Positions 4,239 through 54,536 of a stretch of DNA of 54,536 nucleotides are shown here, in pieces; the first letter of the stretch is position 1, and every line of letters starts with the position of its first letter. The notes beneath the pieces were generated by a model. The model saw only the letters and a program-made list of their open reading frames with translations. It did not search any database and was not told the origin of the DNA. The position numbers and the translations under genes are program-made. Source of the DNA: a virus (Duplodnaviria; Caudoviricetes). Where the stretch lies: the IMG/VR virus record IMGVR_UViG_3300048895_000171, positions 1-54,536 of that record; one strand, 5' to 3'.

Positions 4239-4241
4239 ATT

Positions 4242-39750: not shown

Positions 39751-40620
39751 TCATGCGGTCGGCCTTTTCATCTTGATTGGTTGAATCCGGCACGGGGTTA
39801 ATGACTCGCGAATCTTTCGATACTGCGAAGGGAACATGCTGATGAGGAAGTCCTGGCCCTTCGTGTCGTCGAACACTTTTTGGATTGGCTCGTTATTATG
39901 GAATGCCATGACGCATCGCGAGACTAATCGAAGCCCCTTCTCATTGCGAAGCGCTCCTCTCATTTGATCGAGATTCTTGCGCATCGTTCGTGCCGCGTAG
40001 CCCATGTTCTCAAGGGAATTGAGTTGAAGACACATGGCCAAGGCCTTGTCTTTTTCTGCGTGATGATACATTGCCAGAGGAGCAGTGACGTGGCTGACCC
40101 GCAGCGGTGCACTGGTCATCACTTCAATCACTGCCTCGACATCCTTTCCGAACTGGTCGTAGAGATGCAGAGAGCTGGCCGTGCTCAAGCGCCGTCCTCC
40201 GGCTGACGGAGCAATTATTAGGGCAATGCCGCGCAAAGCTGCCGCAACGACGTTGCTGTTCTTGATTCCATGAGATAGCCCCATCTGCTGACCAGTGGTT
40301 CGAACCCGGTTTCTATCAATGGAATCCATCGTCTTGATTTCCACTCCGCCGATGTTCTCCGCCACTGGCACGTCGCGCGTGACATTCATCTGGATGGTGC
40401 AGCCGCTGAACACAATGGCCCAAAGACGATGCTGGCCGTCCTGCAAGTTTCCATTGGTGTCGAACGCAATGCCTTGGTGCGTCAATGACCACCGTCCGTT
40501 CTTCATGTCCAGCGCGTAGCTTTGCACTGTCGATTCAGAGATGCGACGGTTGATGGTGTTGTGATTTTCCAGCCACTCGGTTGCGATGGCCGGGGTGATG
40601 AGTTCAATTTTGGTTTTCAT
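39751..40620 (-). CDS. ParB/Srx-like (DGQHR) domain protein
   Basis: NRRIS..YALDMKNGRW..QDGQHRLWAI. Confidence 0.75.
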   Translation of the reverse strand: MKTKIELITPAIATEWLENHNTINRRISESTVQSYALDMKNGRWSLTHQGIAFDTNGNLQDGQHRLWAIVFSGCTIQMNVTRDVPVAENIGGVEIKTMDSIDRNRVRTTGQQMGLSHGIKNSNVVAAALRGIALIIAPSAGGRRLSTASSLHLYDQFGKDVEAVIEVMTSAPLRVSHVTAPLAMYHHAEKDKALAMCLQLNSLENMGYAARTMRKNLDQMRGALRNEKGLRLVSRCVMAFHNNEPIQKVFDDTKGQDFLISMFPSQYRKIRESLTPCRIQPIKMKRPTA

Positions 40621-40622
40621 AA

Positions 40623-40874
40623 TTATTTCATTAACTCGTCGGTTACTTCGATTTCAGGGACATTGTGTTGGAACTTGATTTTGCAGACCTTGCCAGAAGG
40701 AAGACCTTTGACATTTTCAAAGATGAATCTCCACAGAATCAACTTCTGCCTTGTGGAACTTCCTTTGTGATTTACGAAGTCGTCGTAGAGCTCACAGAAT
40801 TTCTCCTGATGCTCTTTTGGAACCATGATTACGACCGGCTCCGGCTTGGGTGCTTTCTTTTTGAATGGCCACAT
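40623..40874 (-). CDS. hypothetical protein
   Basis: 83-aa ORF filling the gap exactly. Confidence 0.6.
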   Translation of the reverse strand: MWPFKKKAPKPEPVVIMVPKEHQEKFCELYDDFVNHKGSSTRQKLILWRFIFENVKGLPSGKVCKIKFQHNVPEIEVTDELMK

Positions 40875-40875
40875 T

Positions 40876-41982
40876 TTATTCCTTTCTCACGATGGATGGT
40901 TCGCTTTGTTTGGTTTCGGTGTTGCCGTCGAGGACTTCATCCATAGCCTCGTCGAGCTTCTTTCCCTTGAGGGCGGTCGCCTCTTTCAGCACCGCCTTCA
41001 AATCTGTCTTGCCCACGCTGACGCAGGACATGAACTTCTCCAACAGGACCCCCTGCTTGGAAACGCGGTCGAACACGACCTGTGCGTTGATGATGGGCTG
41101 GTTGATGCGCCCCGGCTTGAGCTCATACCCCGGAACTGACTCCGGGTCTGACTTCAGGAGGGCCTTCATTTCGGCCTTACAGCCCTCCAGCCACTTTTCG
41201 GCCACTGGGAGCCGTTCCATGAACAAACGCCTCATGGCGGGCGTCCAGCTTGCAACGGGCACGGCTATAAGCTCCGATGTCTCCGGTGTGGCGACCATCT
41301 TTCCAGCAAACTGTCCATATTCAGGACACTTGGACTTCGCCTTGCAGAATTTGCACTGAACTTCACCGGCCGTCCGGGGTGCGCCTTCCTTGTTGCTGGC
41401 GTTGATGCGGTGATACATTTCCTCGCGCGCCCGCATGATCTGCTCTTTGGTATAGACGCAAACCTCCGGGCTGTGAGTGACGAACGGCTGGACGACCGCT
41501 GTGGCCACGAATTCCAGCAACGGACTGTTGTGCTCGTAAACGCAGGTCTGGTCACGAAGCTGCATGTTCTTCGATGACACCGGCACGTCGCCGGCCAGCG
41601 CCTTGTATTCGATGATGAGGGCCTTGGTTCCGAGCCGATACACAGCGTCGGTCTGACCGCTGTGTTTCAGTCCGTCTGCCCAGCTAATCCACCACCGCTT
41701 TTCACGGATGGGAACGATTGGCTTGGTGGCATCCGGAAACAACTGGGCGACCAGCTTCTTCTCGATGGTCATGCACGTTTCGTAGCAGTCGTCCTGCTCC
41801 GGCGTCAGTCCCTTGGAATCCTGCTTGGCCAGCGCATCATGGACGCGCGAGCCGTAAACTGAATCCCTGGTGCTGTCGTCAGGCATCCCTCGCTGCATGA
41901 GGTGACGAGCCTGACAGAGTTTGTCTGCCTCCGCGTTGGAGGCTGATGTTGATTCACCGCGATCTTGTGTTGTGGTTTCCAT
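40876..41982 (-). CDS. PD-(D/E)xK exonuclease (RecB/Cas4-like, RecT partner)
   Basis: GSRVH, SGQTD, IIEYK, QL, CKFCKAKSKC; start ATG 41982. Confidence 0.8.
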   Translation of the reverse strand: METTTQDRGESTSASNAEADKLCQARHLMQRGMPDDSTRDSVYGSRVHDALAKQDSKGLTPEQDDCYETCMTIEKKLVAQLFPDATKPIVPIREKRWWISWADGLKHSGQTDAVYRLGTKALIIEYKALAGDVPVSSKNMQLRDQTCVYEHNSPLLEFVATAVVQPFVTHSPEVCVYTKEQIMRAREEMYHRINASNKEGAPRTAGEVQCKFCKAKSKCPEYGQFAGKMVATPETSELIAVPVASWTPAMRRLFMERLPVAEKWLEGCKAEMKALLKSDPESVPGYELKPGRINQPIINAQVVFDRVSKQGVLLEKFMSCVSVGKTDLKAVLKEATALKGKKLDEAMDEVLDGNTETKQSEPSIVRKE

Positions 41983-41984
41983 AA

Positions 41985-42335
41985 TTAAAACGGCATTTTT
42001 ACTTCGTGGTTTGGGTCGGTTAGTTCCAGCGATGGCTGGATTGGGAATGATGACTCCGCCGGTTCTGGCGCAGTCTCTGCGATGTAGTTGTTTTGAGCAG
42101 AATCCAGAGCATTTCTGAATGACTGCCCATGTCGGTCGCACCAGTGCATCAGGTCGCACAGCAGGTCTTTCAGAACATCCTCCGGGTCAGTTGCGCTTTG
42201 ATGTGCGAACTCACGCATGGCATAGAATGCAAGTCCTGCACGTTCGTCATTCATTGCTTCCGGGTCTGGTGGCAGGCCTTGGTCACGCTGACTTGCGTGT
42301 GAATATACCGCGAACTCCTCGCCTGGTTCGTTCAT
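41985..42335 (-). CDS. hypothetical protein
   Basis: DLLCDLMHWCD small helical protein. Confidence 0.65.
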   Translation of the reverse strand: MNEPGEEFAVYSHASQRDQGLPPDPEAMNDERAGLAFYAMREFAHQSATDPEDVLKDLLCDLMHWCDRHGQSFRNALDSAQNNYIAETAPEPAESSFPIQPSLELTDPNHEVKMPF

Positions 42336-43411
42336 GCAACCCCCTTTACCCTTTGGAAGATGTCGTTCTTCTGCTTCTCAAGCATCTGGAAGACCGATGG
42401 TGATTCCATGAGAAGTTGCTCGATGGTGTTTGTTTCTGCGTCGATGGCTCCCATCTCACAAAGGCACGCCAGAACCTTCTCCACTGTCAGGCCAGCAGCG
42501 GCGATGTCCTCTCGCATTTTCTTGACTGGGCTGACAGTCTCACTGGGAGCTGCAACTTTGACTGCGGCCGGACTCTTGACTGCCGGTTTGGCTGGTTCTG
42601 GAGCCGACTTTGACTCAATTTCGACGACTTCGGGTTTTGGCTCGTCAAACTGGGGTGCTGTGACCGTTGATTCCCTCGCGTTGTCGATGTAGCTGACTTC
42701 CTCCGCGTCTGCGTCAATGACCGCGCCGCCATCCATCTTGATGGCCTTCTTCATTTGAATGGACTTGGGGCCGTAATGATTCAACAGCGACTTCTCGACC
42801 GTCTTGATGGCCATTTCATCGCGCTTGGTAATCCACAGGCAGTTGGCCTCCTTGTCGGGCTTGCCCTTGGCATAGCGATATTGCTTCGAGTATTGCATGG
42901 CGTGGTCTTCGATCTCCTCGCATGTCCAGAACTCGCCTCGCTCGAATCCGTTCAGCAGCTTGAACTTTGCTGCGTAGCCGATGACCCTGGCATCTTCCTT
43001 GCGCTGTGACTTGTCCACCACCAGTTCACCAGTGAGCTCGTCGTAGTTAATCAGCTCGCCGTCATAAACCACGGTTGAGCCGAACGCTTTGTATTCACCG
43101 CTTCGCATGGCAAGTTGAATGAATCCTTTGAACCCAATTTGGAACTGGGCTTGGTCGCCGTAGGGAATGATGTGCGCCTCGCCGATGTTCGGGTCAACCG
43201 AAAGGTCGAGGGCTGCTGCGGTCAGAGCTGCGCCGATGACTGAATTGGCGTCGCACTTTTGAAGCTGGAATGACTGCTTCACGATTTGGACGAGGGCTGC
43301 TCCGAAGGCCGCCCCTCGGTCGCCCATGATCTCCTTGAGTCGTGCTTTGACTGCGTCCGATTGCACGACGTCCTTGATGTTGTTGGATTTTATCAGGCTG
43401 GTATTACTCAT
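42332..43411 (-). CDS. recT: RecT-family recombinase
   Basis: AAALDLSVDPNIGEAHIIPY..QFQIGFKGFIQLAMRSG..EMAIKTV. Confidence 0.9.
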   Translation of the reverse strand: MSNTSLIKSNNIKDVVQSDAVKARLKEIMGDRGAAFGAALVQIVKQSFQLQKCDANSVIGAALTAAALDLSVDPNIGEAHIIPYGDQAQFQIGFKGFIQLAMRSGEYKAFGSTVVYDGELINYDELTGELVVDKSQRKEDARVIGYAAKFKLLNGFERGEFWTCEEIEDHAMQYSKQYRYAKGKPDKEANCLWITKRDEMAIKTVEKSLLNHYGPKSIQMKKAIKMDGGAVIDADAEEVSYIDNARESTVTAPQFDEPKPEVVEIESKSAPEPAKPAVKSPAAVKVAAPSETVSPVKKMREDIAAAGLTVEKVLACLCEMGAIDAETNTIEQLLMESPSVFQMLEKQKNDIFQRVKGVA

Positions 43412-43452
43412 GTTTTGTTTTGGTTTGAAATGCCGGAATCCCGGCAAAGTGT

Positions 43453-43728
43453 TCACAGTTTAGCAACCACCTTGTCGGCGGTCAATGGTTTTGAGATGAA
43501 TTCAACGGCCTTCGCCATCGCCTCATCCCTTGAGTTAAGTATTTCTGAGGTGAATACCCGCACGCCGTCCTTGGTGACCGTTGCGTAGTATGACTTTTCA
43601 TCCTTGTCGGTCCATTTGACGTAGATGTTGATGATGAACAGCTCTGATTGATATTCAGGAATCTGTTGAAGCCGACCCGGTGCGTGAACCGGGCACGGAT
43701 ATTTTCTCTGGAAGCAGGTGCAACTCAT
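43453..43728 (-). CDS. hypothetical protein
   Basis: 91-aa ORF, N-terminal CTC..CPVH. Confidence 0.6.
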   Translation of the reverse strand: MSCTCFQRKYPCPVHAPGRLQQIPEYQSELFIINIYVKWTDKDEKSYYATVTKDGVRVFTSEILNSRDEAMAKAVEFISKPLTADKVVAKL

Positions 43729-43738
43729 AAAATAAGAA

Positions 43739-43810
43739 TCGGGGCCGCAGCGTCGGTTCCTCTACCAACCCGCTGAACATATGACATAAACAGCGGTGCT
43801 GCGACCCCGA
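43739..43810 (-). ncRNA. 72-nt three-way-junction RNA element
   Basis: 13-bp P1 and two 6-bp inner stems, with G-U wobbles only on the minus strand. Confidence 0.55.
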
Positions 43811-43816
43811 AATTGT

Positions 43817-45025
43817 TTAATCTCCCATGTGGCCATGCTGGTTTCCATACCCAGCGCCAAGGCCATATCCGTATCCGTATCCACCATTGGACGGAACGCC
43901 GTTTTTCTCTGCGGCTAATTCCTTTCTGGCTTCCTCGGCGGCCTCCTCAGCCTCCTCCTCAGCCTCACGACGCTCATGCTCATCGAACAGATCGACAAGT
44001 TGGTAGCGAGTGTGGTGCAGGGCGTCGAAGATCGCCTGAATCAACTTGAACTCTGAATCATTGCCCAGGAACTCGATTACCCGAGTTAACTCCCAATCCG
44101 TTGTGTGATTCAGTCCAGCCATCACGATGATGTCGTCGAACACATCCATGATGGTCATGTTCTGCTTCTCCTTCTTGGTGCGCTTGATGACCGTCATTGT
44201 TTCATCGTCTCCGGCGTCTGTCTTGACCTCGGTGCCGGGAGTGTTGTGACCAGTGGTCGGCGTTACGATGTTCGAGCCCTTTTGCTTGTCCTGCCATTCG
44301 TAGCGACCGCCGTAGGTGGTGACGACCGGCTTCTCGATGATGTAGTTGTCATGCCACATCTTCGGGAACTGGGTTTCTATCGGTGCTGGAACGCACATCT
44401 GCTTTCTGGCCGTCTTGTCAACCAGCTCAGTGATGCTGAATCCCAACTCGGCAACGAACAGGATTTTGTCGATGAACTCCTTGCCGATGTCCCAGAAAGC
44501 CGACATGTCCGGCTCGAACTTATTGCCCTTGATGTAAAGGCGGGAGTGTATCGTGAACTGCTCCTTATCCATGCTCCCGACGGTGATGTGCAGACCATCC
44601 ACCGCCTTCTCGTCGTCCGTGTCCGTCGAGCTCTGGAACGCGCTGATCGAGCAGTGATGATGAACCGTCCCGAAGGCCACATAGCCCTCCGGTATCTGCT
44701 CCGCGCGCTGCTTCTTGGAGTCCTCGTTGTCCTCCTCCTTGGTGGCCAATGAAGTGCCACCCTTCTGCGGGAACGCCCACGCCATCCATCCTTTTTCAGG
44801 ATGGACGAACAGGCGAACCTGCGCCTCGCTCTTGTGCTCCTTGTAGGTCCACTGGAAGAAGGCCAGGATTTCCGACCACATGGCCGGCGTTATCTTGGGA
44901 CCGCTCCAGTTGAAGGTGGCACCGGTTTCAGAAACCTTGTGCTCCAGCACGCAATCGAACAATCCTGGATAGGACTTGTTCTCCACTGACTTTCCACTGC
45001 TCTCAATTATTTTTCCTGCTTTCAT
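43817..45025 (-). CDS. JAB/MPN+ metallo-isopeptidase (DUB-like)
   Basis: Catalytic Glu in SEAQV and GTVHHHCSISAFQSSTDTDDE (HxH-x7-S-x2-D), DGLHITVG. Confidence 0.85.
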   Translation of the reverse strand: MKAGKIIESSGKSVENKSYPGLFDCVLEHKVSETGATFNWSGPKITPAMWSEILAFFQWTYKEHKSEAQVRLFVHPEKGWMAWAFPQKGGTSLATKEEDNEDSKKQRAEQIPEGYVAFGTVHHHCSISAFQSSTDTDDEKAVDGLHITVGSMDKEQFTIHSRLYIKGNKFEPDMSAFWDIGKEFIDKILFVAELGFSITELVDKTARKQMCVPAPIETQFPKMWHDNYIIEKPVVTTYGGRYEWQDKQKGSNIVTPTTGHNTPGTEVKTDAGDDETMTVIKRTKKEKQNMTIMDVFDDIIVMAGLNHTTDWELTRVIEFLGNDSEFKLIQAIFDALHHTRYQLVDLFDEHERREAEEEAEEAAEEARKELAAEKNGVPSNGGYGYGYGLGAGYGNQHGHMGD

Positions 45026-45032
45026 ATGTTTT

Positions 45033-45959
45033 TTAACTGTTTTCTTCCAATCTGTCCACCAGCTCCGGCTCGTTCTGATTTAAGAACTCGATGATGGTAT
45101 CAATCATAGCCTTCTCGCCCATCTCCGGGTTTGCTGATGAGTCTCTCACGTCGTTCGAATCATGTTCTTCGTAGTCTGGGCCGTCATCTGACCACTCCAT
45201 GTTCGGGAATTCCCCTTGCTGCTGATTGCTGATAAGCTCATCAATCAGTTCCTGCTTTGACACGCCATTCTCGATTTGCTCCCGGAGGTCATCAAGCGTG
45301 ATCTCCACGTTGTCCGTGCCATACCGAGTCACGCTGTATCTAGCCCGGCCGGTCTCCACGTCTTGAAACTCGAACTTGATTGTCACCGAAGGCTCACCGA
45401 CATTGACCGGCCTGGCCTTGCCCTTGGTTAGTTTCATCCGAGCTTGAGGAATCGGGAATGTTTTCTCAATCCACTCCTTCAGCTTGTCGAACGTGTCCAG
45501 CGAAGCCTCGGGCATCGCCTTCACTTTCTTCATGATGTAGCCACGGATGAGCGGGTTCGTTGGCGAATCCTGCATCAGTCCGATGAATGCCTCATCGAAG
45601 TGGTCGCTCAGATAACTGAGTGTCCCGTCCTCCCTCGGCTTTGGCGGTTCCTTGGGAGCGTCCAGCAGAATCTCCAGATATGTGTTCTCATACCAGCTTG
45701 TGATGTGATACCATTCAGCAACGGTTTTGATTCCTGCTTTTTCTCGAGTCACTCCATCCGAGTCTTTGTAGTTAGCGCTTGTCGAGTAAGTGCCATCCCT
45801 GAATTGGAATAACGCCCTCCTGTCCATGTATTTATGCCATTGTTTGTCTGCATTTGAGATTGCGGAATCTATCTTAAAATCCAGTTCCCGGTCTCCGAAT
45901 GCTGGTGGTGCCTTTGCCGTTTCAATGGCAGCAGCCTGTGCTCTTGTTGGTCTTGCCAT
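45033..45959 (-). CDS. acidic hypothetical protein within the Ubl cassette
   Basis: 308-aa ORF between the E1 and JAB genes. Confidence 0.7.
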   Translation of the reverse strand: MARPTRAQAAAIETAKAPPAFGDRELDFKIDSAISNADKQWHKYMDRRALFQFRDGTYSTSANYKDSDGVTREKAGIKTVAEWYHITSWYENTYLEILLDAPKEPPKPREDGTLSYLSDHFDEAFIGLMQDSPTNPLIRGYIMKKVKAMPEASLDTFDKLKEWIEKTFPIPQARMKLTKGKARPVNVGEPSVTIKFEFQDVETGRARYSVTRYGTDNVEITLDDLREQIENGVSKQELIDELISNQQQGEFPNMEWSDDGPDYEEHDSNDVRDSSANPEMGEKAMIDTIIEFLNQNEPELVDRLEENS

Positions 45960-45961
45960 AA

Positions 45962-46627
45962 TTATTTCTTGTTTGGTTTCATGAACTCATACGAGTTCAG
46001 GTTCTGGCGGATGCGGTGCATCATCTCCTTGTGCACCGACCGCTCCAGTTTTGGTTTCTCCATCGCCTGAAGAACGTAGAGATGCTGCATCAGCGCCGCC
46101 GCCATGAAGTTGGCGGACACCAGTTGCACGTTCTTTGCTTGGGCCTCTCCGGTGCAGCCGATGGCCTCCGAGCGGGGGTCATCGCTGTTGTCCGTGAGGA
46201 TTTCAGGATAATAAACGCGCGGGTCGAACTGCGACCCCTTCCACATCGGGTCGTAGTAATACGCCTCCGCGCTTGTTGTTTCGTTGGCTCCGAAGATGGC
46301 CTTGCAGCCATACTGGTCGCACGATTCCAGCACCGCCTTTCGAGCCGGATTGTTGTCCACGCCGACCATAAACCAGTCGCTCGCGTCGAATGTCCACCTG
46401 CCATGTGAGAAGAATTCCTCAAAGGCATTGCAATCGTATTTAACAGCCAATGCGCCCGCCTTGTTCAATCCAATCTGGTCAAACTCGAACAATTGGCGGT
46501 TCAAGTTTTTCTTCTCCAGCTTGTCGCCATCAATGATGGTGACTCGATCTGAATTTGTCAGCAGGCACATGGCCGGAGTCAGCCAGGAGCCGACTCCGCC
46601 TGCACCGATGATGTAGATGTTCTTCAT
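45962..46627 (-). CDS. ThiF/E1-family adenylyltransferase
   Basis: IIGAGGVGS, IIDGD, NLNRQ, GLNKA, GVDN..AR, candidate catalytic Cys in GCTGEAQ..QL..AN..AA. Confidence 0.9.
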   Translation of the reverse strand: MKNIYIIGAGGVGSWLTPAMCLLTNSDRVTIIDGDKLEKKNLNRQLFEFDQIGLNKAGALAVKYDCNAFEEFFSHGRWTFDASDWFMVGVDNNPARKAVLESCDQYGCKAIFGANETTSAEAYYYDPMWKGSQFDPRVYYPEILTDNSDDPRSEAIGCTGEAQAKNVQLVSANFMAAALMQHLYVLQAMEKPKLERSVHKEMMHRIRQNLNSYEFMKPNKK

Positions 46628-46630
46628 GGC

Positions 46631-46957
46631 TTAGAACTCCCTTCCTTCGTTGATGGTTTCAATAATCGCATCCGCCATCATTTCCGTGTTTGGATTGCTG
46701 TCGTTGGTCAGCTCCGCATACTTCGCCTTGACCGCATTCACGATTTCGAGGAAGTTCCGCAACTGCTCCGTGGTCATCAGCCTTTGATGAACCCATGACG
46801 AGTTCCGGCAGGACACCAGCAGCGCATCGCGAATATCGATTGCCTCCGTCTTCATCGACTGCTTCCACGCCTCGATATTTTGAACCATCATCTTCTTGTC
46901 TTCGTTCGGCTTGACGGTTCCGTTGTTGGCGATTTCGTCGAACAGACCCGGCATCAT
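46631..46957 (-). CDS. hypothetical protein within the Ubl cassette
   Basis: ~108-aa helical ORF between the E2 and E1 genes. Confidence 0.6.
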   Translation of the reverse strand: MMPGLFDEIANNGTVKPNEDKKMMVQNIEAWKQSMKTEAIDIRDALLVSCRNSSWVHQRLMTTEQLRNFLEIVNAVKAKYAELTNDSNPNTEMMADAIIETINEGREF

Positions 46958-46959
46958 GC

Positions 46960-47706
46960 TCACAGCAGACCCCCAAACAATGCGGACATGGGAGTGCTGA
47001 TGACCGTGCACAGCTTCGTCCAGTGTTCTGAAGGTTCGAGCGACTCCGTCTCGTCCTTCTTGGTTTTGAACCGGAATAGGCTGTCCGAGTTCCCGGTGCC
47101 ACCGGCCAGGTCAGCGTTCCAATCACTCGCATTGAATTGATTCAACGCCATGCTGAACGCCTCCGACACGGTCGGGGCCACGCCCTCGAACGAGCCCATG
47201 CACACCGCACAATCGTCATACACGTTCGAGATCGGCAGCTTGTAAGCCCTCTTGTCCTTGTCGTAGGCGATGAGCCAGTTGGACTGGTCAGGAGAGGTCG
47301 CCGGCTTGTGCTTCAGGTCAGTGTGGTTGTAGATGCGCGACGCGAACAGCAGCACCATGTCTTCAGGAACCTTCCACAATGGAGCCGCCGCGATGTAGTC
47401 GTTGTCATCATCCTTTTCTTTGAACACCGGAACCAGCACCTTGTCGCCAATCAGCCGGAAGTGGCAGTTGAGTTTGATGTTCGAGAGCCTGGCCACCGCG
47501 TAACGCTCAGTCATAGTGAACAGCAGGCTCGCCGTCCCGCCCGTCTCCGGGCAGGGGAACGCGCGCTTGAGGCTCATCGTGATATTCTTGTTGAACTTTT
47601 CCATCATCGCCGCCGTCACATCGCGAGGAGAGCGCTGGATGGTTGTTAAAAATGAAGTCCCATCAGGATGGAACTCAATAAATGCTTCGTCTTTTGGTCT
47701 TTCCAT
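46960..47706 (-). CDS. prokaryotic E2-like conjugating enzyme (Prok-E2_D/PRTRC-B-like)
   Basis: YKLPISNVYDDCAVCMG..FNASDWNADL matches the PxxNVxxxxxxCxG..FxxSxxNxDL pattern. Confidence 0.75.
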   Translation of the reverse strand: MERPKDEAFIEFHPDGTSFLTTIQRSPRDVTAAMMEKFNKNITMSLKRAFPCPETGGTASLLFTMTERYAVARLSNIKLNCHFRLIGDKVLVPVFKEKDDDNDYIAAAPLWKVPEDMVLLFASRIYNHTDLKHKPATSPDQSNWLIAYDKDKRAYKLPISNVYDDCAVCMGSFEGVAPTVSEAFSMALNQFNASDWNADLAGGTGNSDSLFRFKTKKDETESLEPSEHWTKLCTVISTPMSALFGGLL

Positions 47707-47728
47707 ATGTTTTTTATTTTAAGAGCCG

Positions 47729-47763
47729 AAAAAAAGCCGCCGAGGGATTGCTCCCCCGGCGGC
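47729..47763 (-). terminator. strong intrinsic terminator between Ubl and E2
   Basis: GCCGCCGGGGGA-GCAA-TCCCTCGGCGGC followed by T7. Confidence 0.85.
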
Positions 47764-47783
47764 AGTTATCGGCCGATGACTAA

Positions 47784-48020
47784 TTAGGCGAGGACTTCAG
47801 TCGCCTTGCTGTTTGCGCGGGTCTCCAGCACGATTTCCATGCCGTCAGCCACCTGCGCGGAGCTGTCCTGCTCGACGCCACCCACCAACGCCTTCACGTT
47901 GTCACCATAACCTAGGATGATCTTCGTGGAGGGGTTGTTGATGATGCTGCCAACGGTGGCCGTTGCGCCGACCGTGACTTCCGTGGTGTCGATACCGTAA
48001 CGAACGATTACTTTTTTCAT
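47784..48020 (-). CDS. ubiquitin-like (beta-grasp) protein
   Basis: 78 aa; beta-beta-alpha-beta pattern, VADGMEIVLE as in Ubl strand 5, ends ANSKA-TEVLA; next to E2/E1/JAB. Confidence 0.75.
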   Translation of the reverse strand: MKKVIVRYGIDTTEVTVGATATVGSIINNPSTKIILGYGDNVKALVGGVEQDSSAQVADGMEIVLETRANSKATEVLA

Positions 48021-48068
48021 ATTTGCTTAATTTTCTACTTGGTTCTTGTTGTTGGTTAAAGCCAGCGA

Positions 48069-48509
48069 TTACGCGCCGGTGATTTCGGACTCCGTCACCA
48101 CTTCCGGGGTGATGGCCGTGAGTTCAGCGACAAGCTTGTCGATGTTCTTCTGGGTGTTTGCCTGTTCCTCCTGCGAGGTGGCGATGCCCTGAGCGAGCCG
48201 GTCGCTGGTTTCCATCACGCGGCCCTGCTTGCCCTTCTGGAGAGCCTCGATGGCCTTGGCGATGGTCTGCTGGTTCAGGTTGGCTCCGGTCGTCGGCAGC
48301 GAGGTGCCGAGGATGGAGACATCCGTGATGTCCGGAGTCTGGAGCTTGTTCAATTCCGCCTTCAGCTCCGCCTCCGTCTTGACCAGTCCGGCCAAGTGGG
48401 TCTGGAGTCCGCTGATGCGAACGATCAGCGCGCTGGCCTTGTTGGCGGCGGCCTGCATGTTCGCGTCGTTCAGGTTCTGGATTGCCAATGTTACTACTTT
48501 GTTGCTCAT
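48069..48509 (-). CDS. coiled-coil hypothetical protein
   Basis: 146-aa heptad-rich ORF immediately upstream of Ubl. Confidence 0.7.
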   Translation of the reverse strand: MSNKVVTLAIQNLNDANMQAAANKASALIVRISGLQTHLAGLVKTEAELKAELNKLQTPDITDVSILGTSLPTTGANLNQQTIAKAIEALQKGKQGRVMETSDRLAQGIATSQEEQANTQKNIDKLVAELTAITPEVVTESEITGA

Positions 48510-48536
48510 ATGTTTTACTTTCTTGGTTGTCTAACT

Positions 48537-48620
48537 GGCTTCTAGTTCAGCATTGCCCTGCTGGGAACGCACCACACGATGCGCTCCCTTCAAGGGACAG
48601 ACAAACGGGTCTGTCAGCCG
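48537..48620 (-). ncRNA. structured intergenic RNA element
   Basis: GACAGAC/GTCTGTC and GGGAGCGCATC/GGTGCGTTCCC hairpins, closable by GGCT/AGCC. Confidence 0.4.
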
Positions 48621-48626
48621 TGTATT

Positions 48627-49202
48627 CTACGCTGGTTTCTGTTCTGCGACCAGTGGAATTTCCTCAAACTCCTCATCCATCGCAGCCTTGACCACGGGCA
48701 GGAAGATGTCATGCCTCATCACCGTCTTGAACTGGGCATCGTTGAGCGAGGCCACACACTCAGCAATCTCCGACTCGGTGGCTGACTCCACATCCTTCTG
48801 CTGGACGTGCGTTCCTTCCACCCCTCCACCCGGAGACAGGAGGTATCCATGCTTCGGATTGGTCACAATATACAAGCCGTTCTTGTAGCTGTGCGAGGAG
48901 CCATCCTTCACCACCTTAACCACGCTTAGCACGTTGTATTTCGTCAGGTAGCCTCCATTTGAATTTCCAAACAAGTTTGTGAGCCGGTCATCCTTGTGAA
49001 TGATTCCCATAAACTTGCTGAAGAACGCCTGGTAGGTTTCGTTTATTCCTAATTGTGATGACAGCTCCTTGATTTTCTCCAAGTCTTTCTCACTCAGGTC
49101 GAGCTGATACTCCTTCTCCTTCTGCTTTTCCTCCTTGGGAATCGCAGCGATGCAGGCCGCAATGAGATTACGGAGGACCACCTCCTTGAATGTCACTCTC
49201 AT
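48627..49202 (-). CDS. hypothetical protein
   Basis: 191-aa ORF. Confidence 0.7.
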   Translation of the reverse strand: MRVTFKEVVLRNLIAACIAAIPKEEKQKEKEYQLDLSEKDLEKIKELSSQLGINETYQAFFSKFMGIIHKDDRLTNLFGNSNGGYLTKYNVLSVVKVVKDGSSHSYKNGLYIVTNPKHGYLLSPGGGVEGTHVQQKDVESATESEIAECVASLNDAQFKTVMRHDIFLPVVKAAMDEEFEEIPLVAEQKPA

Positions 49203-49672
49203 TTGTTGAAGAAGTAGGCGTGACGACCCGGCATGAGCACCAGCTCGTCCGCTTCGGTCACAACTTCACCAGACTGCTTAACGAACTTGCCGCCCACGAA
49301 GGACAGCGAGTTGAACTGGACGTTGCCGCCATTTCCGGTTGAGGTGAACTGGTCACTGGCCTTGTGCAGATACAGGTCGCCAGTGGCATAGCCGACATTG
49401 ACCACAGTTGGCCCGCCGCAGCCGCCGCCCTCGCTCTTTTGCTCGGCCGAGAACTTCACGTTCTTCATGATCGCCATGTCGAAGTGCTGTGTCGGCTTCT
49501 TGGTTTGCTTGTCCACGACAGCCCATTTTCCGGCGTTCGCATCGTAGCGCGTGATGGCTCCCTTGATGGGAAGCGGATTGTATTTCTGCATGAGTTTCCG
49601 CAGAGCGGAGACCTCTATTGGTTTTGGTGGAACGTATCCACATACTGCTACTTGTCTTGTTTGTGTTTGCAT
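49199..49672 (-). CDS. hypothetical protein
   Basis: 157-aa ORF with AAAAACATATG start. Confidence 0.7.
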   Translation of the reverse strand: MQTQTRQVAVCGYVPPKPIEVSALRKLMQKYNPLPIKGAITRYDANAGKWAVVDKQTKKPTQHFDMAIMKNVKFSAEQKSEGGGCGGPTVVNVGYATGDLYLHKASDQFTSTGNGGNVQFNSLSFVGGKFVKQSGEVVTEADELVLMPGRHAYFFNK

Positions 49673-49682
49673 ATGTTTTTAA

Positions 49683-50402
49683 TCAGCGGTTGGTTGAACC
49701 ATCGCTTGCTGAAGGCGGTGGAGATTGTTTCCTATGTGGCAGGTTGTCGGCGAGGGTGAGGGCGGCATGGCCATTTAAGTTATCATTACACGCATTGCAA
49801 TTTTGATGTTCTTGATTATGCCAGCTAAGCCAGTTGTCTCTTTTCAGCATTGCATCCAATGCCTTCACCAACTCATTCACCGCGCTACGAAGCTGGGTGA
49901 GTTCGGATTCTAGTTTGATAACTTCATTTTTAGTATCTTGATGCAACTCTTTTTCTTCTTCAAAAGCCATTTGATACGAATGAGAACCAAGATATTCAAA
50001 GGGAGCGAAAGCCTGCCCAGAAGTGGCAGGACTTGATTTCTCCTGAACAGTCTCACGATTAGTTCTATCTTGGTTCTCAAATTTAAGTTTCTCAAACGCC
50101 TCATCCCTCTCCTTCAACGCTTGGGTGATCTCTTGTTCCATTTTGTAGATGTCGCAGATTTCTGCGTGCCCATCTGGGATTTCTCTACCGCACACCTTGC
50201 AGGCACCCCATTCATCAATCCAGTCTCCGTCGCGCTTGGGCTGCTCCACTTTCAACTGGAGATTGGCCGTGTGTTCCTCTATTGCCTTCTTAATTATTCT
50301 GCTCCATGAAGCAATCTTTTCAGGCTTCTTACGCTCAGGAAACTCGCCCTCAGCGTCGAAGATGTCACCAGCTAATTTCTCGGCAAGTTCGTCGATATTC
50401 AT
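49683..50402 (-). CDS. hypothetical mosaic protein
   Basis: Start ATG 50402; CKVC..H..C motif, coiled coil, AT-rich middle. Confidence 0.6.
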   Translation of the reverse strand: MNIDELAEKLAGDIFDAEGEFPERKKPEKIASWSRIIKKAIEEHTANLQLKVEQPKRDGDWIDEWGACKVCGREIPDGHAEICDIYKMEQEITQALKERDEAFEKLKFENQDRTNRETVQEKSSPATSGQAFAPFEYLGSHSYQMAFEEEKELHQDTKNEVIKLESELTQLRSAVNELVKALDAMLKRDNWLSWHNQEHQNCNACNDNLNGHAALTLADNLPHRKQSPPPSASDGSTNR

Positions 50403-50653
50403 TTGGCTGGCCCTCCAGTCAGGTAGCCGACGGTGATCTTTCTGTCGTTGGCGATTCGCCGCACTCGCTGGTGCAGCTTGATGAGTCCGCAGGCTGGACA
50501 GGAAAGCCCGTTGCAGCCGCATTGCTTGGATGCGCGGGCCGCTTGCAGCAGAATGAAGCCCACGTTGTTGGGAAATTGCTCCTCGATTTCTCGCATGAGC
50601 TTGGCCACCTGAAGACGAACCTCGTTCTCAGGGAATAATGCAGTTTTTGCCAT
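50399..50653 (-). CDS. hypothetical protein with Cys cluster
   Basis: MAKTALFPE..CGCNGLSCPAC. Confidence 0.6.
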   Translation of the reverse strand: MAKTALFPENEVRLQVAKLMREIEEQFPNNVGFILLQAARASKQCGCNGLSCPACGLIKLHQRVRRIANDRKITVGYLTGGPAK

Positions 50654-50668
50654 GATTTTATTTGTGAT

Positions 50669-50856
50669 TGGTGAGCGCGGCAGGATTTGAACCTTGCGTG
50701 TTTCTGTCTCGTTTCCCCGTGTTCGCCCAACCTGAACGATAATTGATTGGGCGTGGCACGGAGACTGACACCACCGCACCTACAAAGCAGGTGTTCTCGG
50801 ATATGTTCAGTCTGGTTGCCACTGTCAGGGTGCGTATGCCACTCCGCCACGCGCTC
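50669..50856 (-). ncRNA. tRNA-like RNA 1 (188 nt) with large insert in place of the anticodon arm
   Basis: GAGCGCG/CGCGCTC acceptor, A-CCA end, D arm GCGGAGTGGCATACGC, T arm GCAAGG-TTCAAAT-CCTGC. Confidence 0.75.
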
Positions 50857-50864
50857 AAATTGTT

Positions 50865-51152
50865 TTAGTTTGACCGAGCCTTGCCTTCGATGTTGGCAAT
50901 CGCTTCTCCGGCGGTGATTGGCGCAGTGATTGAGTCCTTCACTTTGAACGGGCCTTTTTCAATCCGGCACGCCCGGAACCGGGCACCAGACTTGAATTGC
51001 TCGTTGATTACTGTGGCGGCCGCGCGGGCGTAGAACTCCTCCTTGTATCGCAGCGGGCCATCGTCGTCACCCATCCATGATTTGTCCTCCGTGTCGAACA
51101 CGCCGAACTTGCCACCGGGTGAGGTGGCTTTGTTTACTGGGATTGGTTTCAT
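50865..51152 (-). CDS. hypothetical protein
   Basis: 95-aa ORF between the two tRNA-like RNAs. Confidence 0.65.
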   Translation of the reverse strand: MKPIPVNKATSPGGKFGVFDTEDKSWMGDDDGPLRYKEEFYARAAATVINEQFKSGARFRACRIEKGPFKVKDSITAPITAGEAIANIEGKARSN

Positions 51153-51155
51153 AAT

Positions 51156-51380
51156 TTATTCTTTCACTTTCGGTCCGTAAGGTTTGATGATTAGGGCGAT
51201 GAGGGACCACTCGATTGCCTTCTCGTTATGCTCCATTGCCATCATAATGGCGTTGACTGCGACATAGGCGAAGCAGACCAGTTGGAACCAGCCCATTGCC
51301 CAGGTGAGCCAACTGATGACGAACTGCTTGTGCTTCTCACGGTCGCGCCAGAGGATATGGCGTTTGTTGAATGATTTCAT
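51156..51380 (-). CDS. small membrane protein
   Basis: MKSFNKRH.. with hydrophobic helices; start ATG 51380. Confidence 0.55.
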   Translation of the reverse strand: MKSFNKRHILWRDREKHKQFVISWLTWAMGWFQLVCFAYVAVNAIMMAMEHNEKAIEWSLIALIIKPYGPKVKE

Positions 51381-51390
51381 TGGCAAGAGA

Positions 51391-51536
51391 TGGGCGCGGC
51401 AGGATTCGAACCTGCAATGAAGTCTGAGGCAACCACGCTGCTGATGATGCGACTCATCCGGCAGCCACGTCGGCATTCGCGCCCCGACAGGCACATGTCC
51501 TCATCTGCGTGCGTTATCCAGTTCCGCCACGCGCCC
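51391..51536 (-). ncRNA. tRNA-like RNA 2 (146 nt) with large insert in place of the anticodon arm
   Basis: GGGCGCG/CGCGCCC acceptor, discriminator A, D arm GCGGAACTGGATAACGC, perfect T arm GCAGG-TTCGAAT-CCTGC. Confidence 0.75.
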
Positions 51537-51544
51537 AAATTTGT

Positions 51545-51982
51545 TTAGTTCCGCGAAACGTCCTCCGGCGGCTCGACGGGCATTTCAGCCGTGAACGTCA
51601 TTGTTTTATCACCGGACTCCTTTCCTTCGAGCTGGCGAATCTTGATGAGCATGGACAGCGACACGATTGTCGATGCCAGTTCGGGGATTTTCCTGACCTT
51701 CATCACGCTAATTATTGAGGCGAGAAGGCCTTTTAGCGCAACCACCGGCAGTCTGCGCATGGTTTCGGGACTTATCAAGACCCATTCCTCCGCGATGGAT
51801 GGAATGAACTCCAATGGCGCTCCGCAGTAGTGGCAGATGGTCACGTTCCCGCTTTTAATGAACTTCTCGGTGGTTTTGATGATCTGCTCGTCGGTCATGC
51901 TCGGCATGATGTCGAACTCATTGTCACAGAACGGACACTCCACGTTCCGCAGTTTTTTGACGTCAATCATAAGTGCCTCCAC
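51545..51982 (-). CDS. zinc-finger hypothetical protein
   Basis: CPFC..CHYC. Confidence 0.65.
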   Translation of the reverse strand: MEALMIDVKKLRNVECPFCDNEFDIMPSMTDEQIIKTTEKFIKSGNVTICHYCGAPLEFIPSIAEEWVLISPETMRRLPVVALKGLLASIISVMKVRKIPELASTIVSLSMLIKIRQLEGKESGDKTMTFTAEMPVEPPEDVSRN

Positions 51983-52172
51983 GGATTGACTCGACTGCCG
52001 AGCGATGGTGAAACGGAGCTGGTTTCTCGTTCGTCACCACAACGACCGGAGTCTCGCCCTTGCCGTTGCAGTTGAGGCATTTCTTCCGGTTGCGCTTGTT
52101 GGTGATGTGACGGTGCTTGACGAACCCCTGTCCCGCGCAGGCCGGGCAGGTGGATTGAATGGTTTTGGTCAT
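51963..52172 (-). CDS. small DnaJ-type zinc-finger protein
   Basis: CPACAGQG..CLNCNGKG. Confidence 0.6.
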   Translation of the reverse strand: MTKTIQSTCPACAGQGFVKHRHITNKRNRKKCLNCNGKGETPVVVVTNEKPAPFHHRSAVESIRGGTYD

Positions 52173-52351
52173 ATTTCAAGTTTGGTTGCCATGATGGTGG
52201 TTCCGGCGATGCCGTGCTGGTGCAGTTCGAGTGAATAGCCTGCTTCCTTGAAAGCATCTTCGAGTTTTGCTCCAATGTTGTGTTCCCCGAAGTGAATGGT
52301 TTCTGGGGTTGATTCAACCATCTCTTTGATGGCTTCAGACAATTTGCTCAT
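52169..52351 (-). CDS. hypothetical protein
   Basis: 60-aa ORF, ATGA overlap. Confidence 0.55.
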   Translation of the reverse strand: MSKLSEAIKEMVESTPETIHFGEHNIGAKLEDAFKEAGYSLELHQHGIAGTTIMATKLEI

Positions 52352-52407
52352 AAAAAATAAGTGAGCTTGGACTTAGTTACTCCGTCCTTGCTCTGTGTTG
52401 TGTTGTC

Positions 52408-52953
52408 TCAGGCCTCCACCGTTTCGGCGGCCTGCGCATCAATCGCCGTGGCACCGCGCGCCAGCGATTCCGCTTCTTCCAGCGCCGCAGTCTGCTCATC
52501 CTCGCTCAGACGAGCAAGGGCTTTGACGAGCTGTTCACGGGTCACTTCAAACGCCTTCGGCGGCAGTTTGGTCTCCAGCGCGAACGCGGCGCGCTGTTTG
52601 CCGGACTTGGCCTGGCTTACGCCCATGGCCGAGAACGTCCAGTTTTCGTCCGCCATCAGCCGCGCCACCTCGCCGGCCATCATTTTCTTTCCGGCGGCCT
52701 TCATGCGGTCGATTTCCGCGTCAATCAGGTGCGCGTTGTCCTTGTTCGGACGGCCCAGACCGAGGCGTTCGGCCACGATTTTACGGGTTTCCAACACGAG
52801 CTTGACCTGCACCTTGTCTTCGCCCGCGACCGCCGGGATTGCACCGGCCACTTGGATGTCCGCGCCGTTCTTTTTGCCGACCAGATGCAGACCGGCCAGC
52901 AGTTCAGGCTGTGTCCCGAACAATGCCACTTGTTTGCTTGTTTGCTGTTTCAT
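52408..52953 (-). CDS. hypothetical protein (possible in-frame Zn-finger extension to 53082)
   Basis: AAAAACATATG start at 52953; upstream in-frame CEIC..CSKH. Confidence 0.65.
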   Translation of the reverse strand: MKQQTSKQVALFGTQPELLAGLHLVGKKNGADIQVAGAIPAVAGEDKVQVKLVLETRKIVAERLGLGRPNKDNAHLIDAEIDRMKAAGKKMMAGEVARLMADENWTFSAMGVSQAKSGKQRAAFALETKLPPKAFEVTREQLVKALARLSEDEQTAALEEAESLARGATAIDAQAAETVEA

Positions 52954-53331
52954 ATGTTTTTCACTGAGTTCGTGAGCGTGATTGCCCACGGAAGCAGGTT
53001 TCAGGTGCTTCGAGCACAGGTCAAAGCCGACCGTGCTCGGAACATCCGAACGACATATTTCACAGACCATTGTTCTCATCATACAGACCTGCCATCACAA
53101 GGAACTGGAACGGATACCATTTGGCCATCCAATCCGCTTGTGCATCGGTCAGCTTGAACCCTTGCGGCGGCTCGACTTGGCGAACCCGCTTGGCTCGTTT
53201 CGCAGGCGCGCGCCGGGCATCGCCCAGCATCATGCTGTTCTGTATCACGTAATGTTTCACTGTGTTTCCTTTGGTTATGCGAGCAGCATTACTCGCGCTC
53301 GCCGCACCCCGAAGGATGCAGCGACCGCGAA

Positions 53332-53586
53332 TCACGCGAACTTGTCTTCAATCGGCATCGGATTCACCGCTTTGGTAGCGAACAGACGCACAGCGACCGT
53401 GCCCGATGCGTGGACATGCTCGCCGGAATCCTTGTTCTGGTAGAAGCCGAGCGTGATGCGTTTCACGGGAAACCCCATCCGTTCAGCTTGGTTCATCACG
53501 TCCTCGACTGCTTCGTGGGCAGCGGAACGGCGTTTCATCTGTTCGCCCGCGTTGGCAGCCAAGCGGGAACCATTCATTGTATTCAT
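53332..53586 (-). CDS. hypothetical protein, first of the leftward arm
   Basis: ~84-aa ORF; start uncertain. Confidence 0.5.
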   Translation of the reverse strand: MNTMNGSRLAANAGEQMKRRSAAHEAVEDVMNQAERMGFPVKRITLGFYQNKDSGEHVHASGTVAVRLFATKAVNPMPIEDKFA

Positions 53587-53698
53587 TGTGACATTTGGCA
53601 GCACCGCTTACTGGGCGGAACCGCCTCCTTCCACCTATAAGGCAGGTGATACTGGGGAATAAACTTTCCAAGTTCGTGACCGCCCGCGCAGACACGAT

Positions 53699-53727
53699 TT
53701 GACACGCTACGCCAGATGCTACACATT
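53699..53727 (+). promoter_or_regulatory. sigma70-like promoter giving a leaderless start
   Basis: TTGACA-17-CACATT, 7 nt before ATG 53735. Confidence 0.5.
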
Positions 53728-53734
53728 GCCGCAC

Positions 53735-54409: not shown

Positions 54410-54536
54410 GACGGTTTGGGGGAAGAATCTTCTGATTCACCTGATATTCGAAATTTGAGTATAACAAATCGGTATAGTCAGCCCTGACCCTGGTTTCGGT
54501 CTGAGTATAACTAAAAAGCATAAGCCCTACTGGAAT
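54410..54536. repeat. 127-bp terminal direct repeat, copy 2
   Basis: Identical to 1-127. Confidence 0.95.

Follow-up and report, generated by a model that had tools for sequence, protein, structure and literature searches.

A divergent PRTRC-related cassette, probably for ubiquitin-like protein conjugation, in the early gene arm of uncultured soil phages

Bil (BilABCD) and type II CBASS (Cap2/Cap3) systems of bacteria use the chemistry of E1, E2 and JAB enzymes, and their JAB peptidase trims the modification or undoes it. The protein that Cap2 of CBASS activates and attaches by its C-terminus is a CD-NTase and not ubiquitin. To our knowledge, the only bacterial systems for which conjugation of ubiquitin-like (Ubl) proteins has been demonstrated to date serve host defence (CBASS, Bil and Bub). 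A further type was predicted as operon type 6d, the 'fourth operon type' of Iyer, Burroughs and Aravind 2006 (PMC1779556). In this type the C-terminal Gly of the tag is highly conserved, and downstream of its Cys the E2 carries a His that is absolutely conserved. We infer that PRTRC (ParB-Related, ThiF-Related Cassette; NCBIfam TIGR03734-03742) and type 6d are the same. The Bub pathways are diverged bacterial Ubl/E1/E2 operons and are described by Ye et al. 2024 (PMC11601596) as having oxyester intermediates, no catalytic cysteines, a serine protease and a peptidase-E1 fusion. [quoted passage not shown] Here we describe a seven-gene cassette in the virus record IMGVR_UViG_3300048895_000171, which is complete, spans 54,536 bases and has direct terminal repeats; its whole length is called the window. 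The cassette is probably a phage-encoded system for Ubl conjugation and deconjugation that belongs to the PRTRC/'type 6d' lineage and is fixed in the early replication-recombination arm of uncultured phages of approx. 41-69 kb.

The seven genes are co-oriented on the minus strand at 43817-48509. They are listed below in order of coordinates, together with a hairpin located among them (aa, amino acids):

43817-45025, minus strand: putative JAB/MPN+ metallopeptidase, 402 aa (HHH-x7-S-x2-D; Prok-JAB, PRTRC_A)
45033-45959, minus strand: acidic-tailed protein, 308 aa, between the E1 and JAB genes
45962-46627, minus strand: minimal E1-like adenylating enzyme, 221 aa (Pfam ThiF; GAGGVG, NLNRQ, GCTGE)
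46631-46957, minus strand: small fast-evolving protein, 108 aa, filling the gap between the E2 and E1 genes
46960-47706, minus strand: E2-like protein, 248 aa, probable divergent relative of Prok-E2_D and PRTRC_B
47729-47763, minus strand: terminator-like hairpin between the tag and E2-like genes (12-bp stem with 10 G-C pairs, then U7)
47784-48020, minus strand: predicted ubiquitin-like beta-grasp tag, 78 aa (AlphaFold2 model, Foldseek)
48069-48509, minus strand: coiled-coil protein, 146 aa, directly upstream of the tag gene

An earlier note, made from the sequence alone, had read this stretch as a phage-carried set of Ubl, E2, E1 and JAB genes with partner genes in the early/replication arm. 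The coordinates of the open reading frames (ORFs) agreed exactly and all motifs that it quoted were found. The ORF between the E2 and E1 genes has the 108 aa given for it when translation starts at the ATG at 46957, right behind the E2-like stop codon; from a GTG the same frame gives 126 aa (46631-47011). The assignments of the 78-aa protein as beta-grasp, of the 221-aa protein as ThiF/E1, of the 402-aa protein as JAB peptidase and of the 248-aa protein as E2-like were all supported by the results below, the last with moderate fold evidence.

The E1-like protein matched Pfam ThiF (PF00899) over residues 3-192 with 55.3 bits against a cut-off of 28.1 (E-value 6.9e-15), and the match was also found on the genome scan (53.4 bits). 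It is a minimal protein without rhodanese, ubiquitin-fold domain, fused E2 or JAB. In an alignment of ten sequences the invariant residues included G8, G10, G11, G13, S14, D33, D35, N41, R44, Q45, K56, D91 and C158, the last being the Cys of the GCTGE motif; these we take to correspond to the adenylation residues of MoeB/ThiF. The best NCBIfam matches were partial ones to ThiF equivalogs (4.1e-10 level). Against TIGR03736, PRTRC_ThiF, the protein scored 31.7 bits (E-value 9e-8) and did not reach the cut-off of 144.75, but the E1 profile matched the canonical PRTRC ThiF at 1.6e-11, and it was therefore regarded as a distant relative and not as a member of PRTRC. When the E1 profile was searched against the PDB, UBA5, UBA3, MccB, SAE2, UBA1, BubCD, ThiF and Cap2 were matched at 1e-10 to 1e-6, mostly over the nucleotide-binding half. 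The closest plasmid relatives had 25-28% identity, and tblastn against deposited phages resulted in four weak partial matches, one of them in Salmonella phage Arash.

The E2-like protein contains PISNVYDDCAVCMG, and its putative catalytic Cys169 sits in LPISNVYDDCAVCMG. Just 6 relatives were recovered by a word-indexed search; an exhaustive profile search gave 681 cluster representatives at E<=0.001, with 146 of them below 1e-30. Among 85 sequences of the family, P93, P158, N161, C169, L200 and W229 were invariant and so was the motif P-x2-N-x7-C-x-G, and downstream of Cys169 the residues W196, N197, D199 and L200 were conserved. N161 and C169 are 8 residues apart, the same distance as separates the HPN-motif Asn from the catalytic Cys in E2 enzymes of the classical type. 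Prok-E2_D (PF14460) was matched by 46 of the 85 members at E<=0.1 (best 7.8e-5), and ten other Pfam families were matched by one member each. Aligned with canonical PRTRC_B by hhalign (E-value 0.0034), the family placed its motif over A-P-F-F-N-V-W-S-Q-G-K-V-C-V-G, so that P158, N161, C169 and G171 stood on the P, N, C and G of canonical PRTRC_B; searched as a profile against the same protein it gave 0.27.

The structural model of the E2-like protein had a pLDDT (predicted local distance difference test) of 93.9, with residues 1-40 of the model barely tested. In VIA-align, which is independent of Foldseek, the top row was BubB (Z 5.0, root-mean-square deviation 3.8, 99 residues), and approx. 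26 of the 50 best rows were E2 or UEV proteins by title (Z 3.3-4.7, 99-131 residues). As a VIA-align Z below 8 can reflect a common arrangement and all values stayed below it, we graded the fold evidence for a UBC-like fold of the 248-aa protein as moderate; sequence and fold combined make a good case. Foldseek against BFVD recovered uncharacterised proteins of uncultured phages only (best 7.9e-10), and a PDB sequence search with the E2-like profile found nothing relevant. In sum, the E2-like protein has sequence links to Prok-E2_D that are weak yet specific, the PRTRC_B motif, and modest structural links to E2/UBC folds in VIA-align; Foldseek found no PDB match, and the Pfam score lay below the cut-off.

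The JAB protein has an N-terminal extension with invariant W59 and R71, a conserved middle, a variable acidic C-terminal half and a Gly/Tyr-rich end. The MPN+ residues E67, H122, H124, S132 and D135 were invariant in ten out of ten sequences, and the family profile matched canonical PRTRC_A at 4.2e-6. The nearest clusters in the atlas were viral and carried PF14464 on 11-46% of their members; compared with these clusters of about 200 aa, the template modelling (TM) score ranged by row from 0.72 to 0.77. A PDB sequence search with the JAB profile found nothing relevant, and tblastn against deposited phages gave one weak match in an unannotated faecal-metagenome record, adjoining an E1 match. 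The 402-aa JAB protein is the probable tail-trimming and deconjugating enzyme.

No match for the tag was found in Pfam, NCBIfam, PHROG or PADLOC. The AlphaFold2 model, built with 45 homologs (pLDDT 90, pTM 0.73), showed the element order b-b-a-a-b-b-b, with residues 68-78 as coil and a flexible tail of 6 residues after the last strand, as in ubiquitin. Foldseek against the PDB gave 22 matches at E<=0.001 with a TM score of about 0.65-0.72, and all those among the matches listed were ubiquitin-family proteins or ubiquitin-like domains, among them Caldiarchaeum ubiquitin, ubiquitin, SUMO, NEDD8, SAMP1 and a Bacteroides ubiquitin-like protein. On the basis of the model the 78-aa protein is predicted with high confidence to have a ubiquitin-like beta-grasp fold.

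The C-terminal motif ETRANSKA of the tag is conserved and is followed in the window by a 5-residue tail, TEVLA. The pattern E-[ST]-[RKA]-A-N-x-K was kept in 59 of 62 homologs, and in these 59 the invariant Lys (Lys72 in the window) was followed by Ala (50), Asn (8) or Gln (1). The number of residues after this Lys was 1 in 5 sequences, 2 in 40, 3-6 in 8 and 11-31 in 6. In the contig L008 (L-numbers, L002-L019 and L021, are labels of the loci or contigs compared) the tag consists of two tandem repeats that each end in HDKG, the end of the second repeat being the C-terminus of the protein. In canonical PRTRC_C the domain matched by the model ends in ...RAAGAKG and is followed by a tail of approx. 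68 aa. By analogy with ubiquitin precursors, Lys-Ala (or Lys-Gly) may be the mature end of the tag and the caps would be removed, most plausibly by the JAB enzyme. Ala would be an unusual acyl donor for an E1.

One locus, L021, was the reference for the comparison with canonical PRTRC; of 300 genomes scored in the class of G001, a single one contained PRTRC_C, and it supplied this locus. By NCBIfam the order in L021 is TraB, ParB, E, C, F, B, A, ThiF, with 623.8 bits for ParB. Like PRTRC, the phage cassette has separate genes for a beta-grasp tag, an E2-like protein (P-x2-N-...-C-x-G), a rhodanese-free ThiF E1 and a JAB with an N-terminal extension, and it is carried by a mobile element. The end of the phage tag, R-A-x-x-x-K-[A/G], is also like that of PRTRC_C, in which ...RAAGAKG precedes a removable-looking tail. 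The differences concern gene content, order and surroundings. ParB was not detected by Pfam or NCBIfam in the seven cassette proteins or by Pfam at E<=0.001 in 60 further window ORFs, all NCBIfam PRTRC scores of the phage proteins were far under the cut-offs, and for PRTRC B and C there was no match at E<=0.1. The phage order is Ubl-E2-small-E1-acidic-JAB instead of E-C-F-B-A-ThiF, and the cassette adjoins RecT and exonuclease genes instead of ParB and transfer genes. Where the PRTRC tag has its Gly, most phage tags have Ala with a cap behind it. The accessory proteins appear unrelated to PRTRC_E and PRTRC_F: hhalign of the small protein with PRTRC_E and of the acidic protein with PRTRC_F gave E-values of 0.16 and 0.91 and no real alignment, at the low sensitivity of a single L021 template each.

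Four features of type 6d (PMC1779556), namely separate genes for a JAB, a rhodanese-free E1, a small beta-grasp protein and an E2-like protein with conserved Cys, are present and conserved in the phage cassette. Type 6d JAB proteins have a conserved Arg and Trp in their N-terminal domain (PMC1779556), to which R71 and W59, invariant ahead of HxH in the phage, may correspond. Unlike type 6d, the phage tag has no conserved terminal Gly, except for the distant L008 repeats (HDKG), and the phage E2-like protein has no conserved downstream His. Two plasmid-borne sets were matched by the E2-like profile. One match (1.2e-5) was a 'prokaryotic E2 D family protein' beside ThiF on the Clostridioides (C.) difficile plasmid pHSJD-312 (NZ_MG973074.1), where the local order of E2, two small genes, ThiF and one more gene is like that of the phage; the other (1.4e-4) was an unannotated gene beside JAB and ThiF on the Leptolyngbya plasmid NZ_CP046156.1. 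In these sets, as in the phage, an E2-type neighbour and an MPN/JAB protein lie near the E1, here represented by its closest plasmid relatives, but they are on plasmids and not in virus records. The overall similarity is very low, and the tag, JAB, acidic and coiled-coil profiles found nothing significant on either plasmid.

In PADLOC, approximately the first 60 residues of the E1, a nucleotide-binding stretch, matched CBASS E1-E2 models (best 1.5e-8), and the other six cassette proteins had no relevant match. Identity as CBASS or Bil was rejected, since PADLOC covers only these approx. 60 residues. Unlike CBASS, the phage cassette has no fused E1-E2, CD-NTase or effector, and unlike the host-owned, host-defending CBASS and Bil systems it is a fixed phage gene set. 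A likeness to Bub was seen in that BubB was the best structural match of the E2-like model and BubCD was among the PDB matches of the E1 profile. It differs from Bub (PMC11601596) in having an invariant Cys in the E1 as well as in the E2, and a JAB peptidase encoded on its own. With tail proteins I and K (PMC1779556) it has in common a phage-encoded beta-grasp protein paired with a JAB peptidase; those proteins belong to the tail module, have no E1/E2 and serve processing only, whereas the present cassette is a full activation and transfer set in the early arm. Neither a phage Ubl-E2-E1-JAB cassette of this type nor a functional test of PRTRC was found in the openly searchable literature, subscription journals being outside this coverage.

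Related loci were collected from eight IMG/VR contigs of 41-69 kb, found with the E1 and tag alignments, and from four contigs binned into metagenome-assembled genomes (MAGs). Two of the loci compared, L012 and L013, repeat L003 and L002. By jackhmmer, the order [coiled coil]-tag-E2-(small ORF)-E1-acidic-JAB was recovered in nine loci (L007 and L012-L019), and L006, a fragment of 2.2 kb, carries the end of E2, E1, acidic and the start of JAB in the same order. The proteins of the nearest contigs were identical to those of the window at 67-68% (E1), approx. 47% (JAB and tag), 36% (E2) and 28-29% (acidic protein), and across the nine loci the catalytic residues were intact despite this range of 28-68%. 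As the order recurs in nine other contigs that have diverged this far, the gene set goes beyond a chance grouping. RecT followed next after the cassette in eight of the nine loci, sometimes with an exonuclease thereafter; for L019 no RecT was detected within the stretch examined. In L008, a rearranged contig of 11.7 kb that looks phage-like and encodes a DNA polymerase and a primase, the order is di-tag, a 238-aa protein of unknown function, JAB, E1 and E2, and the linkage of the four core families thus survives, which argues for a functional unit. By-eye reading of the translations also showed a GroES-like ORF (7770-8159, plus strand) and a family-A DNA polymerase just downstream of the L008 cassette.

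No match was obtained by blastn of 43000-49500 against deposited phages, and a cultured relative of this particular cassette was not found among them either by blastn or by tblastn of E1 and JAB. A locus search with the E1 alignment returned two viral contigs only, both already in the set. L007 is the first 14.6 kb of the 188-kb MAG contig CAWEVE010000039.1, binned as Terriglobia, with the cassette, coiled-coil and exonuclease genes at the contig start. It may be a prophage, which would point to a host in the Acidobacteriota, or the contig may be chimeric or wrongly binned.

In the window, the minus strand carries nearly all long ORFs between approx. 34.4 and 54.2 kb. This arm encodes a primase/helicase-like protein, a RusA-like resolvase, a pyrophosphatase and a DNA helicase, and beside the cassette two recombination genes:

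42332-43456, minus-strand arm: RecT (Pfam 2.8e-41; PHROG 5.7e-61)
40876-42159, minus-strand arm: PD-(D/E)XK/DUF2800 exonuclease (Pfam, PHROG)

The placement of the cassette in the early/replication arm, claimed before, agrees with the RecT, exonuclease, helicase and primase-like genes on the same arm, and the claim that the phage itself carries the cassette agrees with the phage gene annotations and the complete terminal-repeat record, in which an exact 127-bp repeat is common to both genome ends. From its gene content we concluded that the element is a very poorly annotated tailed-phage-like virus with the cassette in its replication-recombination arm.

The hairpin between the tag and E2-like genes has a free energy of -37.4 kcal/mol (z -4.7), and 0 of 200 shuffles folded as well. 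In L012 and L016 a hairpin with U-tract but of different sequence occupies the corresponding site, as does, in L019, a further one of different sequence with no clear U-tract. At the tag/E2 junction of L014 no hairpin was detected and that of L007 was weak; in L015, L017 and L018 just 2-8 bases lie between the stop-to-stop frames of the tag and E2-like genes. The hairpin is a probable attenuator, which would hold the transcripts of tag and coiled-coil protein above those of the enzymes. A scan for sigma-70-type promoters in window positions 40000-54536 found 2, against 6.6 ± 2.4 expected from shuffles. The early arm may use other promoter types, a phage-specific polymerase or a sigma factor, and in the window no phage-specific polymerase or sigma factor was identified.

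Several observations weigh against reading the cassette as a conjugation system of PRTRC type. For the E2-like protein of the window, Prok-E2_D gave 13.6 bits at a cut-off of 25, Foldseek with the model found no match in the PDB, and the VIA-align Z was at most 5.0 and so in the range of a possibly common arrangement. None of the columns that are invariant, or nearly so, in the alignment of 85 sequences is a His. The JAB scored likewise under the cut-offs for Prok-JAB (PF14464; E-value 0.083, 13.2 bits vs 25) and for TIGR03735 PRTRC_A (1.9e-4, 21 bits vs 101.8), and the E1 of L007 is split over two frames. For the tag, a PDB sequence search with the profile found nothing relevant, and hhalign with one PRTRC_C sequence gave an E-value of 0.061 over 13 columns, which is not significant. 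Nor does the tag end in Gly-Gly or in a single Gly, as known E1 substrates do; the residue after its Lys varies (Ala/Asn/Gln), so that the mature end proposed above is tentative.

From the known chemistry of E1, E2 and JAB enzymes we infer how tag processing, thioester transfer, choice of targets and biological role may be connected in this cassette. The 78-aa beta-grasp tag would first exist as a precursor whose C-terminus bears a short, variable cap, and the JAB peptidase would cut off this cap to bare the conserved ...R-A-N-x-K-A end. The minimal ThiF-type E1 would then adenylate the carboxylate of the tag, perhaps also binding the tag in thioester form at the invariant Cys158, before it is handed to the invariant Cys169 of the E2-like protein. 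The latter would move the tag onto lysines of host or phage proteins, the choice of target perhaps being aided by the small helical, the acidic or the coiled-coil protein, and the JAB could also reverse the modification. Where the hairpin is present, it would cause more tag and coiled-coil protein to be produced than enzymes. As to purpose, modification of host or phage proteins and the countering of host Ubl defences are guesses.

The three remaining cassette genes encode accessory proteins. For the coiled-coil protein weak coiled-coil-type matches only were obtained (Pfam, PHROG, PADLOC). A homolog was found immediately upstream of the tag gene in six of ten related loci, and no such gene lies beside the cassette in the other four (L008, L012, L013 and L019). 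It is a candidate second E1 substrate or adaptor and an optional member of the cassette. An ORF of approx. 105-143 aa fills the E2-E1 gap in seven of eight loci examined, L013 being left out of this count as the same contig as L002, which has a 105-aa ORF; the eighth, L019, has an ORF of 285 aa at this place. The gap proteins have 13-19% aligned identity between loci and one invariant Pro, and the 108-aa protein had no Pfam, NCBIfam or PHROG match except a weak one to Csm2_III-A (Pfam, E-value 0.036, below cut-off). It is a cassette-specific accessory. The gene of the 308-aa acidic protein sits between E1 and JAB in nine of ten related loci. This protein has a variable N-terminus, a core SPxNxxxR ... 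PP..DTFxKLxxWxE ... ExGxCxY and an acidic tail; P133, N135, R139, P150, W163 and G204 are invariant, with no obvious catalytic set. No match was found in Pfam, PHROG or PADLOC, two weak NCBIfam rows to elongation factor 1-beta (E-value 0.056-0.072) were below cut-off, and an atlas structure search gave no usable match. It is a candidate adaptor or substrate.

Read by eye, with no motif search run, the C-termini of the cassette proteins showed no Q-L-x-L-F-type sliding-clamp motif, and Pfam gave no clamp gene among the window ORFs scanned. The four closest genomes each encode, on the strand of the cassette and 0.7-1.9 kb upstream from it, a small zinc-ribbon-like protein (approx. 77-84 aa; C-x-C-x5-C-x2-C) that ends in G-Y-L-[TS]-G-G plus 2-7 variable residues:

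Window 50399-50653, minus strand: zinc-ribbon protein gene
L007 3214-3456, same strand as cassette: zinc-ribbon protein gene
L012 3298-3534, same strand as cassette: zinc-ribbon protein gene
L013 4869-5105, same strand as cassette: zinc-ribbon protein gene

Its end resembles a capped Gly-Gly of ubiquitin type, and the protein could be another substrate of JAB and E1, or the resemblance could be a coincidence.

A rival explanation concerns the identity of the substrate. In a CBASS-like arrangement with two substrates, for which the activation of a CD-NTase at its C-terminus by Cap2 is a precedent, the same E1 would activate the C-terminal Gly of the coiled-coil protein (perhaps also the YLTGG of the zinc-ribbon protein) and join it to targets, and the beta-grasp protein would be a second modifier or an acceptor via Lys72. 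The window coiled-coil protein ends in ...EITGA, Gly is the last or penultimate residue in 14 of 15 database homologs and in all six aligned loci, and G145 is invariant in the alignment of these six. Among the 15 homologs, 10 end in V-[LM]-G, 4, which form the window's sub-lineage, in T-G plus one residue, and 1 differs; the sub-lineage with this one-residue cap is also the one whose common tag tail is longest, and such an end would be expected of a second E1 substrate. Also in favour are the grouping of the coiled-coil gene with the tag gene upstream of the hairpin, a tag that ends in Ala and not Gly and has an invariant Lys two residues from that end, and the zinc-ribbon end GYL[TS]GG plus 2-7 residues conserved in the window, L007, L012 and L013. 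Yet the coiled-coil gene is missing in four of ten loci; its product is therefore not the only substrate of the system, and because it is dispensable there we ranked the idea as a rival or extension. Furthermore, the K-G/K-A end of the beta-grasp protein is common to PRTRC_C and the L008 tandem repeats, and the terminal Gly may be conserved for other reasons. Taken together, we consider this arrangement unlikely. Equally speculative, and to be held at the same low expectation, is a multi-substrate machine in which one E1 would activate the K-A tag, the Gly-ended coiled-coil protein and possibly the YLTGG zinc ribbon, all capped, encoded upstream of an attenuator and in excess over the enzymes, and attached early to replication/recombination or host defence proteins. 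If this were true, phages would use ubiquitin chemistry offensively, with modifiers of non-ubiquitin fold and a non-glycine acyl donor.

The conjugation reading has further to be weighed against two explanations that give the enzymes another role. The tag could be a sulfur carrier in the style of ThiS/MoaD with ThiF/MoeB, whose thiocarboxylate would serve cofactor, nucleoside or DNA modification, with the JAB only maturing the carrier, as Mec+ matures CysO. The best NCBIfam matches of the E1 to ThiF equivalogs and its minimal form without ubiquitin-fold domain would fit, and neighbourhoods of JAB, ThiS/MoaD and E1 in sulfur metabolism are described in Iyer 2006 (PMC1779556). The cassette, however, always includes an E2-like protein with an invariant Cys, its JAB and E1 profiles match PRTRC proteins, and no rhodanese, cysteine desulfurase or sulfurtransferase was found by Pfam in the cassette or the 60 window ORFs. 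The tag has no Gly-Gly end, and its listed Foldseek matches are mostly ubiquitin, SUMO and NEDD8, with SAMP1 as a ThiS/MoaD-type protein and no ThiS or MoaD entry. A sulfur carrier is thus very improbable. Hardly more credible is a defence or exclusion device carried by the phage, with Bil-like tagging of the structural proteins of competitor phages or with abortive infection. Bil systems of bacteria do tag phage structural proteins. Bacterial E1/E2/JAB/Ubl operons act in anti-phage immunity according to PMC11601596, and the E1 has its partial PADLOC matches to CBASS E1-E2 models, but these are limited to the short nucleotide-binding stretch. The place of the cassette, with early genes on one side and RecT/exonuclease on the other, is the same in every related contig, which resembles a core gene and not a variable island, and no integrase was detected by Pfam at E<=0.001 among the 60 ORFs. 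Of the five distinct atlas clusters listed for the JAB, four are 80-97% viral and the fifth 50%.

The remaining parts of the genome gave little annotation. The plus-strand half has a weak terminase match and large uncharacterised proteins. This presumed structural half includes a single ORF of 2,394 aa (27269-34453, plus strand) without PHROG or Pfam match, which may encode a giant virion or tail-associated protein. Two neighbouring plus-strand genes at 3477-4907 were matched by Pfam, one as family-2 glycosyltransferase-like (Glyco_tranf_2_4, 1.1e-7) and the other as a methyltransferase of Methyltransf_24/CmcI type (8e-12), a pair with possible DNA- or surface-sugar-modifying functions in the phage. 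No tRNA genes were detected in the window. The stretch was listed with 19 public DNA runs that bear soil or root metagenome labels, 8 of which contain at least half of the sampled words and 4 of which may be its source, and no RNA runs containing it were listed.

The cassette described here is a new, phage-fixed and divergent relative of the predicted PRTRC cassettes. New are the K-A end of the tag with its variable caps, the hairpin that splits the tag from the enzyme genes and the Gly-ended coiled-coil partner. PRTRC/type-6d cassettes were predicted in 2006, and a related but distinct cassette is now found fixed in the early arm of diverse uncultured soil phages. Its compact set of seven genes poses the questions whether phages tag proteins, which targets they would choose, and whether an E1 can use a Lys-Ala end or the Gly of a coiled-coil protein.

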